Positions 1,990-19,945 of a stretch of DNA of 19,945 nucleotides are shown piece by piece. The position numbers were made by a program, and so were the translations under genes. This DNA comes from a virus (lineage: Duplodnaviria; Heunggongvirae; Uroviricota; Caudoviricetes), in IMG/VR virus record IMGVR_UViG_2627853844_000002. One strand, 5' to 3'. Numbering within the stretch: the first letter of the stretch is position 1; each line of letters begins with the position of its first letter. The notes beneath the pieces were generated by a model. That model had not been told where the DNA came from. It saw only the letters and a program-made list of their open reading frames with translations, and did no database searches.

Positions 1990-2263
1990 ACAGGCTCGTG
2001 AGGCTCTGGATGCCTGGATATGTCGACCAGGAATGACACAGGAGCAGGCGACGATATTAATCACTGAAGCATTCTGGGCTTTGAAAGAGCGCCCGAACAT
2101 CGATGTTCAGCGTGTCACATATGAAGGTGGCGCGATTGATCAGCGAGCGCTTGGCGTTAATCGAGTGAAGATATTTGAACGCTGGAAGGCTATCGACACC
2201 AGGGATAAGCGTGAAAAGTTCACGGCGCTAGTGCCTGCAATTATGGAGGCTACCACTGGATGA
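1973..2263 (+). CDS. ydfX: Qin prophage protein YdfX (96 aa); overlaps the dicC 3' end by 17 nt
   Basis: ORF translation MKITPEQAREALDAWICRPGMTQEQ...; position immediately after dicC. Confidence 0.65.
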   Translation: MKITPEQAREALDAWICRPGMTQEQATILITEAFWALKERPNIDVQRVTYEGGAIDQRALGVNRVKIFERWKAIDTRDKREKFTALVPAIMEATTG

Positions 2264-2285
2264 TGAAAAGAGTGTCCATGAACGA

Positions 2286-2435
2286 GTGGATAATGCCCGT
2301 ATTGATTTACGCTCAAAATACTATGTTAAACCTAAAGCTGACCATCCCTGGCTTACGCGCCGAACGCAAAGTCATCAGCAAGTTAAGCCCCCGAAGTTAC
2401 CTAAAAAGAAGCCTGATCCCGATAAAAAAGATTGA
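2286..2435 (+). CDS. Small lysine/proline-rich ORF (49 aa, GTG start), possibly the ydfW/intK remnant; an alternative-frame ORF 2260..2487 also exists
   Basis: Manual translation VDNARIDLRSKYYVKPKADHPWLTRRTQSHQQVKPPKLPKKKPDPDKKD; the length matches my recollection of YdfW, but the frame assignment is uncertain. Confidence 0.3.
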   Translation: MDNARIDLRSKYYVKPKADHPWLTRRTQSHQQVKPPKLPKKKPDPDKKD

Positions 2436-2832
2436 AACCAAGATCGATTCGGTTGAGTGCATATCCATTCATAGGGTAGATTCTTAAGTCGCGTTTCTGG
2501 TGTTCATTTTCGGGTGGTTTGTTACTTGTTTTACCGGGGATATGCCAGAAACGCGCTGAGTCAGTCTGGGCGGTGCGCGTAATGAGGCGTTATGGTAAAT
2601 AGCCTATGCTAATGTCCGCTAAGAGCAAGAAGCGGAAGTTGGCAGTTTTGTGGACTGTCCCCACAAAAGTGACTACAGAAATAGTTGCAATTCATAATTG
2701 ATCATGGGTTGTCAGTTAAACTCGTGGCGATTTAAATAGACTAATTGGGAGTGCGTCCATTACTTATATCTTGTAATGTTAACTATCAGAAATGATACAA
2801 AGATAATATGTCTTTAAAGAAAAGGCTGATGG

Positions 2833-2859
2833 CGAAAAGTGGCCCGATGAGGGCCACAA
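2833..2859 (-). terminator. Rho-independent terminator downstream of flxA
   Basis: Inverted repeat GTGGCCC-gatga-GGGCCAC (2840-2859) followed on the minus strand by a U-rich run (CUUUUC), immediately 3' of the flxA stop. Confidence 0.55.
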
Positions 2860-2871
2860 TACGGCTGTCAC

Positions 2872-3204
2872 TTAGACGTAAATATCAATGGTGCCAGCGG
2901 TATTTGTATCGTCTTTTTTCTCTTCTTTTTTATCAGGCTGAACTGTCGCGTCTTCATTCTTTTTCTCTGCCTGCTGCCTTAACAACTGCTCCAGTTGAGC
3001 CCAGAGGCTTTCAATTTGCTTCTGTACCAATGCAGCCATTTCTTTTTTCTGCTGTGTCGTCATCCCCTCTTCCGATGAGATTTTCCCAAGCTTTTCAGTC
3101 AGCACCTGAATTTGTCTTGTGATTTTGGCTATTTCTGATGTTCCTTCCGGGGCGGAGTTGTTTGAAATAACGGTTGAGGTATTTCCCTGAATTGTGACAG
3201 ACAT
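2872..3204 (-). CDS. flxA: FlxA, FliA (sigma-28)-regulated protein (110 aa)
   Basis: ORF translation MSVTIQGNTSTVISNNSAPEGTSEIAKITRQIQVLTEKLGK...; sigma-28 promoter directly upstream. Confidence 0.85.
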   Translation of the reverse strand: MSVTIQGNTSTVISNNSAPEGTSEIAKITRQIQVLTEKLGKISSEEGMTTQQKKEMAALVQKQIESLWAQLEQLLRQQAEKKNEDATVQPDKKEEKKDDTNTAGTIDIYV

Positions 3205-3225
3205 AGATTTCTCCTTTTAAAAAAG

Positions 3226-3252
3226 CACTATCGGCATGCACAAAAAAATCTT
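3226..3252 (-). promoter_or_regulatory. Sigma-28 (FliA) class 3 promoter for flxA
   Basis: Minus strand reads TAAAGATT-N11-GCCGATAG, against the sigma-28 consensus TAAAGTTT-N11-GCCGATAA, about 25 nt upstream of the flxA ATG. Confidence 0.7.
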
Positions 3253-3406
3253 TAATCGTATTTCTTGTGTCATTAATTGTTTGATGTTCAGATTGTTTTC
3301 CTCGCGGGCTGGCGCGCCTCAGAAAGTAAAGCTTGTTGACAGGGGTAAACGTTCGGCAATAATTTTCTGCCGCATGCGGGTGTTGCATAAAACGTGTTAC
3401 GTTCCT

Positions 3407-3712
3407 TTATCGACAGGTCAGGTCACCGCTCACCCGCCGACGAGAAAGCAACACTGACATGCTAAAGCAAAAAATAGATGAATAAGTTGAGTTGTGCATA
3501 TGTAGCCTGACCGTCACAAAGTATATGGTGTCTGTACCAGTAAGATGATGGCCGGACTCTTTAAAAACGAGCTGACCTGCACAATACAGGATGGACTTAG
3601 CAATGGCTGCTCCTGGCACAAAGCGGACAGTGATCACCGTTCTTACGACTACTTTCTGACTTCCTTCGTGACTTGCCCTAAGCATGTTGTAGTGCGATAC
3701 TTGTAATGACAT
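3407..3712 (-). CDS. ydfV: Hypothetical ORF (ydfV-like, 101 aa); doubtful coding status, overlaps the relB promoter/operator
   Basis: ORF track only; length matches the annotated K-12 ydfV as I recall; no recognisable domain. Confidence 0.3.
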   Translation of the reverse strand: MSLQVSHYNMLRASHEGSQKVVVRTVITVRFVPGAAIAKSILYCAGQLVFKESGHHLTGTDTIYFVTVRLHMHNSTYSSIFCFSMSVLLSRRRVSGDLTCR

Positions 3713-3725
3713 TTGTAATTACAAG
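3700..3725 (+). promoter_or_regulatory. relBE operator relO (RelB/RelE autoregulation site) within the relB promoter
   Basis: CTTGTAATGACATTTGTAATTACAAG: TTGTAAT repeated at 3701-3707 and 3713-3719 with inverted ATTACAA at 3718-3724, 12 nt upstream of the relB start. Confidence 0.65.
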
Positions 3726-3736
3726 AGGTGTAAGAC

Positions 3737-3976
3737 ATGGGTAGCATTAACCTGCGTATTGACGATGAACTTAAAGCGCGTTCTTACGCCGCGCTTGAAA
3801 AAATGGGTGTAACTCCTTCTGAAGCGCTTCGTCTCATGCTCGAGTATATCGCTGACAATGAACGCTTGCCGTTCAAACAGACACTCCTGAGTGATGAAGA
3901 TGCTGAACTTGTGGAGATAGTGAAAGAACGGCTTCGTAATCCTAAGCCAGTACGTGTGACGCTGGATGAACTCTGA
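3737..3976 (+). CDS. relB: RelB antitoxin (79 aa)
   Basis: ORF translation MGSINLRIDDELKARSYAALEKMGVTPSEALRLMLEYIADNERLPFKQTLL...; ATGA overlap with relE. Confidence 0.95.
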   Translation: MGSINLRIDDELKARSYAALEKMGVTPSEALRLMLEYIADNERLPFKQTLLSDEDAELVEIVKERLRNPKPVRVTLDEL

Positions 3977-4263
3977 TGGCGTATTTTCTGGATTTTGACG
4001 AGCGGGCACTAAAGGAATGGCGAAAGCTGGGCTCGACGGTACGTGAACAGTTGAAAAAGAAGCTGGTTGAAGTACTTGAGTCACCCCGGATTGAAGCAAA
4101 CAAGCTCCGTGGTATGCCTGATTGTTACAAGATTAAGCTCCGGTCTTCAGGCTATCGCCTTGTATACCAGGTTATAGACGAGAAAGTTGTCGTTTTCGTG
4201 ATTTCTGTTGGGAAAAGAGAACGCTCGGAAGTATATAGCGAGGCGGTCAAACGCATTCTCTGA
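3976..4263 (+). CDS. relE: RelE mRNA-interferase toxin (95 aa)
   Basis: ORF translation MAYFLDFDERALKEWRKLGSTVREQLKKKLVEVLESPRIEANKLRGMPDCYKIKLRSSGYRLVYQV... Confidence 0.95.
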   Translation: MAYFLDFDERALKEWRKLGSTVREQLKKKLVEVLESPRIEANKLRGMPDCYKIKLRSSGYRLVYQVIDEKVVVFVISVGKRERSEVYSEAVKRIL

Positions 4264-11386: not shown

Positions 11387-11499
11387 GTGTCTATTCGATG
11401 GATACTCACATACTACGGTAACATCATGAAAAAAATCATAGTTTTTTTAACTCTGAACCAGCAGTGGTAGTGCCAGCGATGACTGGAGTTAACACCATC

Positions 11500-11655
11500 A
11501 TGCGTGAATATCCAAATGGCGAAAAAACACACCTTACTGTAATGGCCGCAGGGTTTCCATCTCTGACCGGAGATCATAAAGTCATTTATGTAGCCGCGGA
11601 TCGACATGTTACTTCAGAAGAAATTCTGGAAGCAGCAATAAGGCTCTTGAGTTGA
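11500..11655 (+). CDS. ynfN: Small Qin prophage protein YnfN (51 aa)
   Basis: Internal ATG of ORF 11464..11655: MREYPNGEKTHLTVMAAGFPSLTGDHKVIYVAADRHVTSEEILEAAIRLLS; length matches recollection. Confidence 0.6.
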   Translation: MREYPNGEKTHLTVMAAGFPSLTGDHKVIYVAADRHVTSEEILEAAIRLLS

Positions 11656-12000: not shown

Positions 12001-12151
12001 TGTATTCAATAATAAAATTTATCCATAAACCTCGTTTTTACGGGGTTTTGTTATATTTGAATGGTTCCGAATATCTAAATCACAATTGTTGATGGTTTTT
12101 ATTAAACCAATGCAGTCCGGCTCAGGAGTGAGAGAAGCCGGACGTTATGGT

Positions 12152-12562
12152 TTAGCGTGGTAAGATCTGTGTAGTTTTCTGGATGCTTTCAGTAAATAGT
12201 AATGAATTATCAAAGGTATAGTAATATCTTTTTTGTTCGTGGATATTTGTAACCCACCGAAAAACTCCTGCTTTAGCAAGGTTTCTTCTGTATTCCTGAA
12301 ATGTGATCTCTCTGGATTTCAGCTTATTAGAGGTCGTTTCTATAAGATGCCTATCCTTTGAAAATTTGACAGACACAATGTTTTTTAGGCCCTTTAATAA
12401 CACTGTATTATCATTTTTTAATACAATATGAACATTCTCTGTGGCTAAATAGTAAATGTAATGTGAGACATTGTGACGTTTTAGCTCAGAATAAAACCAT
12501 TGATAGTTTAAATCGTTTCGAACTTTATCAAATATTTGTTTAAAAATGACTACCTGATCCAT
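12152..12562 (-). CDS. ydfO: YdfO, DUF1398-family prophage protein (136 aa)
   Basis: ORF translation [54 protein letters not shown]...; GGAAGG SD 7 nt upstream of ATG 12562; an IS10 end lies 37 bp upstream. Confidence 0.8.
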
Positions 12563-12589
12563 AGATAAACCTTCCATGTGATATGAGGG

Positions 12590-12598
12590 GGCGTAGTC
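12590..12598. repeat. IS10 target-site duplication, left copy (GGCGTAGTC)
   Basis: Identical 9-mer directly abuts both IS10 termini (12590-12598 and 13928-13936). Confidence 0.9.
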
Positions 12599-12644
12599 CT
12601 GATGAATCCCCTAATGATTTTGGTAAAAATCATTAAGTTAAGGT

Positions 12645-12713
12645 GGATACACATCTTGTCATATGATCAAATGGTTTCGCGAAAAATCAATAATCAGACA
12701 ACAAGATGTGCGA
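12645..12713 (-). ncRNA. IS10 antisense RNA-OUT (from pOUT; represses transposase translation); coordinates approximate
   Basis: Placed from established IS10 organisation (RNA-OUT covering roughly IS10 nt 47-115, overlapping the transposase start at nt 108); not derived independently from the sequence. Confidence 0.5.
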
Positions 12714-13914
12714 ACTCGATATTTTACACGACTCTCTTTACCAATTCTGCCCCGAATTACACTTAAAACGACTCAACAGCTTAACGTTGGCTTGCCACGC
12801 ATTACTTGACTGTAAAACTCTCACTCTTACCGAACTTGGCCGTAACCTGCCAACCAAAGCGAGAACAAAACATAACATCAAACGAATCGACCGATTGTTA
12901 GGTAATCGTCACCTCCACAAAGAGCGACTCGCTGTATACCGTTGGCATGCTAGCTTTATCTGTTCGGGCAATACGATGCCCATTGTACTTGTTGACTGGT
13001 CTGATATTCGTGAGCAAAAACGACTTATGGTATTGCGAGCTTCAGTCGCACTACACGGTCGTTCTGTTACTCTTTATGAGAAAGCGTTCCCGCTTTCAGA
13101 GCAATGTTCAAAGAAAGCTCATGACCAATTTCTAGCCGACCTTGCGAGCATTCTACCGAGTAACACCACACCGCTCATTGTCAGTGATGCTGGCTTTAAA
13201 GTGCCATGGTATAAATCCGTTGAGAAGCTGGGTTGGTACTGGTTAAGTCGAGTAAGAGGAAAAGTACAATATGCAGACCTAGGAGCGGAAAACTGGAAAC
13301 CTATCAGCAACTTACATGATATGTCATCTAGTCACTCAAAGACTTTAGGCTATAAGAGGCTGACTAAAAGCAATCCAATCTCATGCCAAATTCTATTGTA
13401 TAAATCTCGCTCTAAAGGCCGAAAAAATCAGCGCTCGACACGGACTCATTGTCACCACCCGTCACCTAAAATCTACTCAGCGTCGGCAAAGGAGCCATGG
13501 GTTCTAGCAACTAACTTACCTGTTGAAATTCGAACACCCAAACAACTTGTTAATATCTATTCGAAGCGAATGCAGATTGAAGAAACCTTCCGAGACTTGA
13601 AAAGTCCTGCCTACGGACTAGGCCTACGCCATAGCCGAACGAGCAGCTCAGAGCGTTTTGATATCATGCTGCTAATCGCCCTGATGCTTCAACTAACATG
13701 TTGGCTTGCGGGCGTTCATGCTCAGAAACAAGGTTGGGACAAGCACTTCCAGGCTAACACAGTCAGAAATCGAAACGTACTCTCAACAGTTCGCTTAGGC
13801 ATGGAAGTTTTGCGGCATTCTGGCTACACAATAACAAGGGAAGACTTACTCGTGGCTGCAACCCTACTAGCTCAAAATTTATTCACACATGGTTACGCTT
13901 TGGGGAAATTATGA
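12706..13914 (+). CDS. IS10 transposase (402 aa)
   Basis: ORF translation MCELDILHDSLYQFCPELHLKRLNSLTLACHALLDCKTLTLTELGRNLPTKARTKHNIKRIDRLL... recognised as IS10 transposase; start at IS10 nt 108. Confidence 0.95.
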   Translation: MCELDILHDSLYQFCPELHLKRLNSLTLACHALLDCKTLTLTELGRNLPTKARTKHNIKRIDRLLGNRHLHKERLAVYRWHASFICSGNTMPIVLVDWSDIREQKRLMVLRASVALHGRSVTLYEKAFPLSEQCSKKAHDQFLADLASILPSNTTPLIVSDAGFKVPWYKSVEKLGWYWLSRVRGKVQYADLGAENWKPISNLHDMSSSHSKTLGYKRLTKSNPISCQILLYKSRSKGRKNQRSTRTHCHHPSPKIYSASAKEPWVLATNLPVEIRTPKQLVNIYSKRMQIEETFRDLKSPAYGLGLRHSRTSSSERFDIMLLIALMLQLTCWLAGVHAQKQGWDKHFQANTVRNRNVLSTVRLGMEVLRHSGYTITREDLLVAATLLAQNLFTHGYALGKL

Positions 13915-13927
13915 GGGGATCTCTCAG

Positions 13928-13936
13928 GGCGTAGTC
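13928..13936. repeat. IS10 target-site duplication, right copy (GGCGTAGTC)
   Basis: Same 9-mer as 12590-12598, directly after the IS10 inside end. Confidence 0.9.
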
Positions 13937-13957
13937 TGCACGATTATCTAAATTGCT

Positions 13958-14191
13958 TCAATCTGGTCTGACCTGTTTTCTGAGCAATTCAGTAATGTCA
14001 CTCTTTTCTTTGTTTGCTTCAGAAGAAACTCTTTTTTCTGAGCACAGTCTCCGGCGGCAGGCTTCAATGACCCAGGCTGAGAAATTCCCGGACCCTTTTT
14101 GCTCAAGAGCGATGTTAATTTGTTCAATCATTTGGTTAGGAAAGCGGATGTTGCGGGTTGTTGTTCTGCGGGTTCTGTTCTTCGTTGACAT
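13958..14191 (-). CDS. ynfO: YnfO, uncharacterised prophage protein (77 aa)
   Basis: ORF translation MSTKNRTRRTTTRNIRFPNQMIEQINIALEQKGSGNFSAWVIEACRRRLCSEKRVSSEANKEKSDITELLRKQVRPD; stop lies 22 bp from the IS10 target duplication. Confidence 0.7.
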   Translation of the reverse strand: MSTKNRTRRTTTRNIRFPNQMIEQINIALEQKGSGNFSAWVIEACRRRLCSEKRVSSEANKEKSDITELLRKQVRPD

Positions 14192-14329
14192 GAGGTTGCC
14201 CCGTATTCAGTGTCGCTGATTTGTATTGTCTGAAGTTGTTTTTACGTTAAGTTGATGCAGATCAATTAATACGATACCTGCGTCATAATTGATTATTTGA
14301 CGTGGTTTGATGGCCTCCACGCACGTTGT

Positions 14330-14579
14330 GATATGTAGATGATAATCATTATCACTTTACGGGTCCTTTCCGGTGATCCGACAGGTTACGGGGCGGCGAC
14401 CTCGCGGGTTTTCGCTATTTATGAAAATTTTCCGGTTTAAGGCATTTCCGTTCTTCTTCGTCGTAACTTAATGTTTTTATTTAAAATACCCCCTGAAAAG
14501 AAAGGAAACGACAGGTGCTGAAAACGAGCTTTTGGGCCTCTGTCGTTTCCTTTCTCTGTTTTTGGCCGTGGAATGAACA
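14330..14579 (+). other. Lambda-type cohesive-end site: cosQ / cosN (GGGCGGCGACCT at 14391-14402) / cosB
   Basis: CGCACGTTGTGATATGTAGATGATAATCATTATCACTTTACGGGTCCTTTCCGGTGATCCGACAGGTTACG followed by GGGCGGCGACCTCGCGGGTTTTCGCTATTTATGAAAATTTTCCGG... matches the lambda right-end/left-end junction as I recall it, with a few substitutions in cosB. Confidence 0.85.
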
Positions 14580-17641: not shown

Positions 17642-17875
17642 TTACATTTTACCATTTAAATTTTGGTTGTCTTTAAGAACTGATATCGCTGTTTGTAATA
17701 ATTCTTTGTTATCCAGCCATGATGTTTTCTTTATGTTTCCTTCAATGTAATCAAGCAATGTTCTGGTATTGATAGGTCTTCCCTGTTTTGCTACTTCCAC
17801 TACAGCATCCCCTAGGATAATTCTTACTTCAGGAAGCTGCGCAGGGAACCACTTTAGGGTGTCTTTTGATTTCAT
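17642..17875 (-). CDS. ydfK: YdfK (77 aa), small prophage protein
   Basis: Internal Met of ORF 17642..17908: MKSKDTLKWFPAQLPEVRIILGDAVVEVAKQGRPINTRTLLDYIEGNIKKTSWLDNKELLQTAISVLKDNQNLNGKM; AAGGAAT SD upstream. Confidence 0.7.
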   Translation of the reverse strand: MKSKDTLKWFPAQLPEVRIILGDAVVEVAKQGRPINTRTLLDYIEGNIKKTSWLDNKELLQTAISVLKDNQNLNGKM

Positions 17876-18661
17876 GAAGATATTCCTTAAAATATTATTG
17901 ATTTTCATTGCGATATTGTATGTCTGATTCAGGATATGTTGACTTATACATCGGTTTTGTCTGGGTTATTGGATATGCCAATCCCTAATTTTATTAGAGC
18001 ATGACTAAAAATGCTGAATATGATAAGGAGCGAAGTGATTATCAGTATGCTGTTCATATAGCCTCGAATTAGTAATGTGTTATATATGATATAGTTGACA
18101 ATTTTTATCCTGGGTGTTCTTAAAGTTCGTAGATAAACATTGTCGTTTCAGGTATACAGGAATGCTAACAGGTGGCGGCAAAAATCAGGCGGTTTATGGC
18201 GCAAGCTGAAGTGGCAACTGCAAACTATCTTATGCAGAGACTCTACACGGATTGGGTTTAAAAGTATACATAGATAACAGTTTTTATCTGAAAAAGAAAA
18301 ATATCAAGGTGATATAGCCTATATGCCTTTGATGCGGAGGAATGAATGTGATGGGAGTGATGTATCTGAATAGTTGAAAAACCGCAGACACACCTTATGC
18401 AAGAACGTGCTGCGATTGGCTGGTAAATTTTTCGATAGTGTGAGTATTGAATGATTTCCAGCCGTTCTTGATTTTACGCATAAATCCATGAAAAAACTAC
18501 TTATCTGTTGGGGAGTTTTTTTGGGGCATATATGGGACAGAAATAGGCCCCAGATAGACACTGAGATCGAACTTAGGATGCTTTTTAAAAAAATGCAACT
18601 ATCTGAAAAAACCTAGAAAACGCCAAGGAAACCACAGGATGGGAAAAAACACCTGTGAATT

Positions 18662-19945
18662 ATGGATTTCCAGTTATATTCGCTCGGCGCAGCGTTAGTG
18701 TTTCATGAAATATTTTTTCCTGAATCATCAACGGCAATGGCGTTAATTCTGGCAATGGGAACCTACGGTGCAGGTTATGTGGCGCGTATTGTCGGAGCAT
18801 TTATTTTCGGCAAAATGGGCGACAGAATAGGGCGTAAAAAAGTGCTCTTTATTACCATCACCATGATGGGGATCTGTACCACCTTAATTGGTGTGTTACC
18901 GACCTATGCACAGATTGGTGTTTTTGCACCCATCTTGCTGGTGACGTTGCGTATTATTCAGGGGTTGGGTGCAGGTGCGGAAATTTCCGGTGCCGGTACG
19001 ATGCTGGCGGAATATGCGCCAAAAGGTAAGCGCGGAATTATCTCCTCATTTGTGGCTATGGGAACTAACTGCGGAACCTTGAGCGCAACGGCAATCTGGG
19101 CCTTTATGTTCTTCATTCTCAGTAAAGAGGAACTGCTGGCGTGGGGATGGCGTATACCGTTCCTGGCGAGTGTTGTCGTGATGGTCTTTGCTATCTGGTT
19201 GCGTATGAATCTGAAAGAAAGCCCGGTCTTTGAGAAGGTTAACGACAGTAACCAACCGACAGCAAAACCTGCACCTGCTGGTAGCATGTTCCAGAGCAAA
19301 TCCTTCTGGCTGGCAACAGGGCTGCGTTTTGGTCAGGCGGGTAACTCCGGGTTAATTCAGACTTTCCTTGCAGGCTATTTAGTGCAGACGTTATTGTTTA
19401 ACAAAGCAATTCCAACAGATGCATTGATGATCAGTTCGATTCTCGGCTTTATGACCATTCCGTTCCTTGGTTGGTTATCCGATAAAATTGGTCGCCGGAT
19501 CCCGTATATTATTATGAATACCTCCGCGATTGTGCTGGCATGGCCAATGCTTTCTATCATTGTAGATAAAAGCTATGCCCCGAGCACCATTATGGTTGCA
19601 CTGATTGTGATTCATAACTGTGCGGTGCTGGGATTATTTGCTCTGGAAAACATTACCATGGCAGAAATGTTCGGCTGTAAAAACCGCTTTACCCGGATGG
19701 CTATTTCTAAAGAAATTGGTGGTCTTATCGCTTCCGGTTTTGGTCCTATCCTGGCGGGTATTTTCTGCACCATGACGGAATCCTGGTATCCGATCGCCAT
19801 TATGATCATGGCATATTCAGTGATTGGTTTAATCTCTGCGCTGAAAATGCCAGAGGTGAAAGACCGTGATTTAAGTGCGCTGGAAGACGCTGCGGAAGAT
19901 CAACCGCGTGTTGTAAGAGCTGCGCAACCTTCCAGAAGTCTGTAA
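18662..19945 (+). CDS. ydfJ: MFS transporter (metabolite:H+ symporter family, ProP/ShiA/KgtP-like), apparently N-terminally truncated (427 aa)
   Basis: Many hydrophobic transmembrane segments; the G-x3-D-R-x-G-R-K motif occurs at about residue 50 rather than about residue 90, implying loss of the first one to two transmembrane helices; an in-frame stop lies 2 codons upstream of the ATG. Confidence 0.8.
   Translation: MDFQLYSLGAALVFHEIFFPESSTAMALILAMGTYGAGYVARIVGAFIFGKMGDRIGRKKVLFITITMMGICTTLIGVLPTYAQIGVFAPILLVTLRIIQGLGAGAEISGAGTMLAEYAPKGKRGIISSFVAMGTNCGTLSATAIWAFMFFILSKEELLAWGWRIPFLASVVVMVFAIWLRMNLKESPVFEKVNDSNQPTAKPAPAGSMFQSKSFWLATGLRFGQAGNSGLIQTFLAGYLVQTLLFNKAIPTDALMISSILGFMTIPFLGWLSDKIGRRIPYIIMNTSAIVLAWPMLSIIVDKSYAPSTIMVALIVIHNCAVLGLFALENITMAEMFGCKNRFTRMAISKEIGGLIASGFGPILAGIFCTMTESWYPIAIMIMAYSVIGLISALKMPEVKDRDLSALEDAAEDQPRVVRAAQPSRSL

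Follow-up and report, generated by a model that had tools for sequence, protein, structure and literature searches.

An IS10-Right-type element in the ynfO-ydfO spacer of the Qin prophage of Escherichia coli K-12 ER2796

Introduction

A copy of IS10 lies between the prophage genes ynfO and ydfO in the DNA analysed here (the window, 19,945 nucleotides), and the locus raises the question of whether this is a simple transposition into a previously intact spacer, which arm type of Tn10 the copy belongs to, where it came from, and what it does to the gene next to it. The window is identical at 19945/19945 positions to E. coli K-12 ER2796 (NZ_CP009644.1, 1611430-1631374, reverse strand), and the region is the cryptic prophage Qin, from ydfJ to ydfC.

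Identity and boundaries of the element

The element was delimited by reading the sequence, by the list of open reading frames and by a repeat search, which together gave a complete IS10 of 1329 bp (Table 1), starting with CTGATGAATCCCC at 12599 (in a longer string, CTGATGAATCCCCTAATGA) and ending with GGGGATCTCTCAG at 13927. The two ends form an imperfect inverted repeat, about 23 bp long and beginning CTGA, with 17 of 23 positions complementary. On both sides the element is bordered by GGCGTAGTC; the repeat finder gives 10 nt and not 9 because the last G of IS10 extends the match by chance, and the 9-bp flanking repeat is genuine, not a chance repeat.

Table 1. Features at and around the insertion, in window coordinates
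Feature	Position	Strand	Basis or remark
ydfO (DUF1398, Qin prophage)	12152..12562	-	annotation; Pfam DUF1398 E = 1.5e-46
Target-site duplication, left copy, 9 bp GGCGTAGTC	12590..12598	.	single in MG1655 empty site
IS10, IS10-Right type by sequence, 1329 bp	12599..13927	+	outside end 12599, inside end 13927
Outside-end terminal inverted repeat, 23 bp	12599..12621	+	terminal comparison
RNA-OUT antisense RNA	12644..12713	-	Rfam RF00240
Dam site GATC, IS10 bp 67-70	12665..12668	.	sequence read
IS10 transposase gene, 402 aa, intact	12706..13914	+	sole long ORF
Inside-end terminal inverted repeat, 23 bp	13905..13927	-	carries GATC
Dam site GATC in inside end, IS10 bp 1320-1323	13918-13921	.	sequence read
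Target-site duplication, right copy, 9 bp GGCGTAGTC	13928..13936	.	repeat search
ynfO (DUF3950, Qin prophage)	13958..14191	-	annotation; Pfam DUF3950 E = 2.7e-21

The transposase reading frame matches Pfam DDE_Tnp_1 at 87.3 bits (cut-off 23, E = 1.5e-24), and is annotated in ER2796 as WP_001339197.1. Its translation shows D97, D161 and E292 together with the IS4-family signature Y-(2)-R-(3)-E-(6)-K (Y285-R288-E292-K299), residues that we take, from the literature, to have the catalytic role. RNA-OUT was recovered over its full length (70/70), scoring 98.8 bits where the gathering score is 41; the RNA overlaps the beginning of the transposase gene and starts at IS10 bp 115 (window 12713, minus strand), the known start of pOUT. 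IS10 is known to have two Dam sites with a regulatory role, one in the inside end and one in pIN, the promoter of the transposase gene, at its −10 region; Dam methylation normally restrains IS10, and a dam-negative state raises its transposition. The overlap of the site at bp 67-70 with the −10 region of pIN has been described (PMC5006887).

Membership in IS10 of the IS4 family is indicated by length and termini, the DDE reading frame, the 9-bp duplication, RNA-OUT and the two Dam sites, all of which are present. An earlier note on this DNA had described the element as IS10, complete at 1329 bp, its 402-aa transposase intact and a 9-bp direct repeat flanking it, and the reading frame, the DDE_Tnp_1 match, the termini and both repeat copies agree with that description. 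No part needed for autonomous movement is missing, since the copy has both ends, the transposase, RNA-OUT and the two Dam sites; judged by its sequence, it should still be mobile, and more so as the host is dam-negative.

Empty site and strain distribution

Deleting 12599-13936 from the window leaves 18,607 bp, the same length as MG1655 NC_000913.3 1631002-1649608, and the two sequences differ by 11 SNPs in 18607 bp, none of them close to the insertion site. The MG1655 empty site carries one copy of GGCGTAGTC and a ynfO-ydfO spacer of 57 bp (measured from the annotated ydfO start at 12562; 42 bp if the longer ORF, starting at 12577, is used), the earlier note having estimated roughly 57 bp on removal of the element and one repeat. 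Its statement that the K-12 reference has no IS10 agrees with the empty site in MG1655 and with a published statement that MG1655 is without IS10 (PMC11148124). With an exact empty site and a 9-bp duplication, the locus is therefore a simple insertion and not a rearrangement.

Eight of the 11 SNPs cluster at window 17724-18235 (ydfK, ynfT and the region upstream), which matches the report of a patch in Qin ydfK that gene conversion brought in from the Rac prophage (ynaE) (PMC4444293); the isolated SNPs are 647 A/G in ydfC, 5930 A/T in ydfU, and 8607 G/A between ynfU and cspB. The gene ynfN (11426-11655) is labelled 'frameshifted' by RefSeq in ER2796 and in its derivative ER3413 (NZ_CP009789.1), with the same sequence as in MG1655, where a shorter intact gene is annotated; the label is an annotation difference and no mutation.

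For the strain distribution, two 301-bp junction queries were searched against 5426 complete E. coli genomes. Both IS10 junctions were found together in two genomes, ER2796 and ER3413, and the uninterrupted ynfO-ydfO junction in 2174, while IS10 at any location was present in 1968 genomes, at up to 45 places per genome. The opgB::IS10 allele is common to 30 genomes, only two of which (again ER2796 and ER3413) have the ynfO-ydfO insertion, and the insertion is therefore specific to the ER2796/ER3413 branch; that it was strain-specific had been suspected in the earlier note. It is also already in print: S1 Table of Anton et al. 2015 PLoS One (PMC4444293) has a row for "IS10 in intergenic ynfO-ydfO" (insertion bet 1635044-1635045; ER2796 1617449-1618786; 1338 bp), and the main text of that paper counts "two solo IS10 insertions" in ER2796. 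The ynfO-ydfO IS10 is thus a known, strain-specific and documented insertion.

IS copies are a classic cause of misassembly, and one explanation of the locus would be that the ER2796 assembly has put an IS10 copy in the wrong place. However, the target duplication is perfect and the empty site precise, ER2796 and ER3413 were sequenced separately and both carry the insertion, with 10 internal bases differing between their copies, and both genomes were closed with long PacBio reads, so that an assembly artefact is extremely unlikely.

Right or Left type

Of the two arm types of Tn10, a tetracycline transposon, IS10-Right is the one that is autonomous and transposase-proficient; on the classical map it is the arm near tetD/tetR. 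The canonical Tn10 map likewise gives IS10R as the arm nearer tetR (PMC10044804). Typing was carried out against the two IS10 arms of Tn10 in plasmid R100 (NC_002134.1), the original Tn10 source. The window copy is identical to the tetD-proximal R100 arm at 1328/1329 positions, the one difference being a silent change at bp 203 (A in the window copy, C in both R100 arms), and has 16 differences from the gltS-proximal arm; at the positions that separate the two arms it is Right-type in 15 of 15. WP_001339197.1 is the transposase of the tetD-proximal arm as well. Near-identity to this arm, with IS10R being the arm near tetR, therefore makes the window copy IS10-Right by sequence, and the earlier view that Right and Left could not be told apart from the window is not upheld. 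The IS10 copies of NEB 5-alpha, called IS10L by others, show 17 differences from the window copy, which is consistent with this typing although indirect. Protein cluster names for the three transposase variants gave no Right/Left split, all being 'ISVsa5 family' or 'IS10 transposase'.

A search of the source genome for further copies, which the earlier note had proposed, gave six IS10 copies and one Tn10 in ER2796: two solo copies, the two Tn10 arms and a tandem at opgB. The six copies are of two sequence types, which differ at 10 positions (bp 24, 25, 27, 47, 83, 107, 203, 410, 425 and 903). Between the window copy and the gltS-side arm of yedZ501::Tn10 there is no difference (1329/1329). The second type is hybrid: it resembles IS10-Left over the outer 900 bp (bp 24-903) and IS10-Right close to the inside end (1249-1300), and it makes up the tetD-side Tn10 arm, the insertion in rclA and the two copies at opgB.

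These hybrids bear on a different typing, in which the window copy would be IS10-Left or a Left/Right hybrid, poorly autonomous and mobilised in trans. Four of the six ER2796 copies are hybrids with IS10-Left-type bases at bp 24-903, the ER3413 copy at the ynfO-ydfO site is of hybrid type, and the window's own sequence type occupies, in the ER2796 Tn10, the gltS side, which is the 'Left' position of the R100 map. Against this stand the Right-type bases at every arm-separating position, the 16 differences from the Left arm and a transposase that is the R100 Right arm protein, and the sequence type of the window copy is named IS10R in PMC10044804. We regard a Left or hybrid identity as extremely unlikely, and retain IS10-Right.

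yedZ501::Tn10 of ER2796 (2021730-2030876) and the Tn10 of R100 (36132-45278) are both 9147 bp long, with 25 differences, all inside the IS10 arms. The arm arrangement in ER2796 (gltS side fully Right, tetD side hybrid) is the reverse of that in R100. The Tn10 of strain BM28 is arranged as in ER2796, its arm of IS10R type being far from tetR and its L/R hybrid close to it (PMC10044804), and the F' plasmid NZ_CP053608.1 carries a Tn10 with 100% identity to the ER2796 element; an arrangement with the Right arm far and the hybrid near seems to be common to laboratory Tn10. A single inversion between the Tn10 arms does not fully explain it: it accounts for the tetD-side hybrid but not for the fully Right gltS-side arm, for which an extra conversion would be needed.

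Two further observations concern the hybrid type. The rclA::IS10 junction of ER2796 was found at 100% identity in five genomes, with seven covering at least 80% of the query, and the genomes with this junction include the dam/dcm strain ET12567 and the isolates AR436 and AR_0374; either these genomes have the insertion from a common laboratory ancestor, or the site is a recurrent hotspot. UniRef places the hybrid-type transposase sequence with an entry for a human cDNA (Q6AW98_HUMAN, DKFZp686P13170), which is probably IS10 that jumped into the clone from an E. coli cloning host.

Neighbouring genes

With respect to transcription of the two prophage genes, the insertion has ynfO on its upstream side, with 30 bp between the ynfO stop codon and the inside end of IS10, and ydfO on its downstream side, with 37 bp between the outside end and the annotated ydfO start; the transposase gene (plus strand) is antiparallel to both (minus strand). 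Since ynfO-ydfO is among the operons listed in PMC12218254, it is reasonable to say that the insertion splits a probable ynfO-ydfO transcription unit. The insertion adds 1338 bp to the distance that separates ydfO from ynfO and from whatever lies upstream of ynfO, and read-through from ynfO into ydfO is therefore probably lost.

The orientation of the element, which this analysis adds to the earlier note, places pOUT toward ydfO: the outside end faces this gene, and pOUT and RNA-OUT therefore point into it. Activation of adjacent genes from pOUT is known from the older literature. Transcripts from pOUT may thus read into ydfO, and polarity on ydfO may be offset in part. How far such read-through would extend is uncertain, because RNA-OUT ends at IS10 nt 47 (PMC5006887). 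Sequence reading and a repeat search found no T-rich terminator after RNA-OUT or the small hairpin at 12612-12635. A scan of 12100-14500 for consensus sigma-70 promoters returned no sites, and missed the known pIN and pOUT too; it is therefore uninformative on promoters here.

A PdhR SELEX peak between ynfO and ydfO, with a PdhR-box-like sequence, has been reported (PMC7660256). The reverse complement of that sequence, ATCTGGTCTGACCTGTT, is located at window 13961-13977, inside the 3' end of ynfO, and IS10 now separates ydfO from this SELEX site.

Origin of the insertion

ER2796 is dam-negative (PMC4444293), its dam allele being dam-16::Kan, and its published Tn10 history comprises yedZ501::Tn10 as well as the tandem IS10 left by zjj202::Tn10 at the fimB-opgB deletion (PMC4444293). 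These records, and the copies in the genome, substantiate the idea in the earlier note of a lineage exposed to Tn10. The locus is almost certainly a simple cut-and-paste insertion of IS10-Right into the Qin ynfO-ydfO spacer, made within this Tn10-exposed pedigree. IS10 transposase excises the element and cuts the target with a 9-bp stagger, and repair yields a direct repeat. Tn10 was brought into the pedigree deliberately, as zjj202::Tn10 and yedZ501::Tn10; on this scheme, a copy of IS10-Right type then transposed on its own into the 57-bp spacer, the transposase cutting GGCGTAGTC with a 9-bp stagger and gap repair producing the flanking direct repeat. Either Tn10 could have been the donor. 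The target GGCGTAGTC agrees with the known preference NGCTNAGCN at 4/6 specified positions, a moderate and not a perfect hotspot match.

A parallel insertion bears on whether the event was also selected. In FDAARGOS_1370 (NZ_CP070098.1, a clinical isolate), IS10 lies upstream of ycgX, a DUF1398 paralogue of ydfO, at a homologous position, in the same orientation and with the same target core (GCGTAGT) as the ydfO insertion of ER2796. It is an independent event at another locus, near bluR/ycgX, and the copy is of IS10-Left type with 14 differences. The ycgX element occupies 2654-3982 of the extracted locus and is flanked by the direct repeat TGCGTAGTG.

One reading of this parallel is that the ydfO insertion is real but was selected, pOUT turning on a DUF1398 gene and the same arrangement having hence arisen twice, at ydfO and ycgX. 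Two independent insertions at homologous positions, with the outside end toward the DUF1398 gene in both, and an intact RNA-OUT and pOUT facing ydfO, speak for such selection. However, there are only two such events among 5426 genomes, the orientations of two insertions match by chance in 50% of cases, and the core shared by the two sites points to sequence-directed target choice. Selection through pOUT is judged very unlikely, and the wider proposal, that the sequence upstream of DUF1398 prophage genes is a recurrent IS10 target at which insertions might be retained through pOUT activation, is very unlikely too. If it were true, the ER2796 insertion would be an IS10-driven activation of a silent DUF1398 gene and not a neutral passenger. 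Simple insertion of IS10-Right is thus kept as the reading of the locus.

Significance

ER2796 is a methylation-free cloning host in wide use, and the ynfO-ydfO IS10 is among its documented secondary mutations; it shows that IS10 remaining from strain construction with Tn10 still moves in laboratory lineages. An intact copy of the active Right type, derepressed by the dam-negative state of its host, is a possible source of further insertions into chromosomes or cloned plasmids. Work on the Qin prophage in ER2796 or ER3413 would be done with ydfO uncoupled from ynfO. Beyond such bookkeeping the insertion has little importance.

Comparison with known systems

The element and the entry in PMC4444293 are the same object, since strain, coordinates and sequence agree and the 1338 bp given there include one repeat; that paper gives neither the Right/Left type of the ynfO-ydfO IS10 nor its orientation relative to ydfO, both of which are given here.

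The IS10 of ER3413 is at the same site as in ER2796, with the same direct repeat and orientation, but differs from the window copy at all 10 hybrid-type bases, one consequence being V266I in the transposase. This copy (2150-3478 of the extracted locus) is identical to four hybrid copies elsewhere in the ER3413 genome, and its base changes have been published as probable gene conversion. The conversion tract covers at least 880 bp and was acquired by a dam-negative strain in the course of a few steps of strain construction.

With the IS10-Right of R100 (the tetD-proximal arm), the window copy shares the length of 1329 bp, the terminal repeats, RNA-OUT, the two Dam sites and the 9-bp target duplication; the R100 element is an arm of Tn10, whereas the window element is a solo copy.
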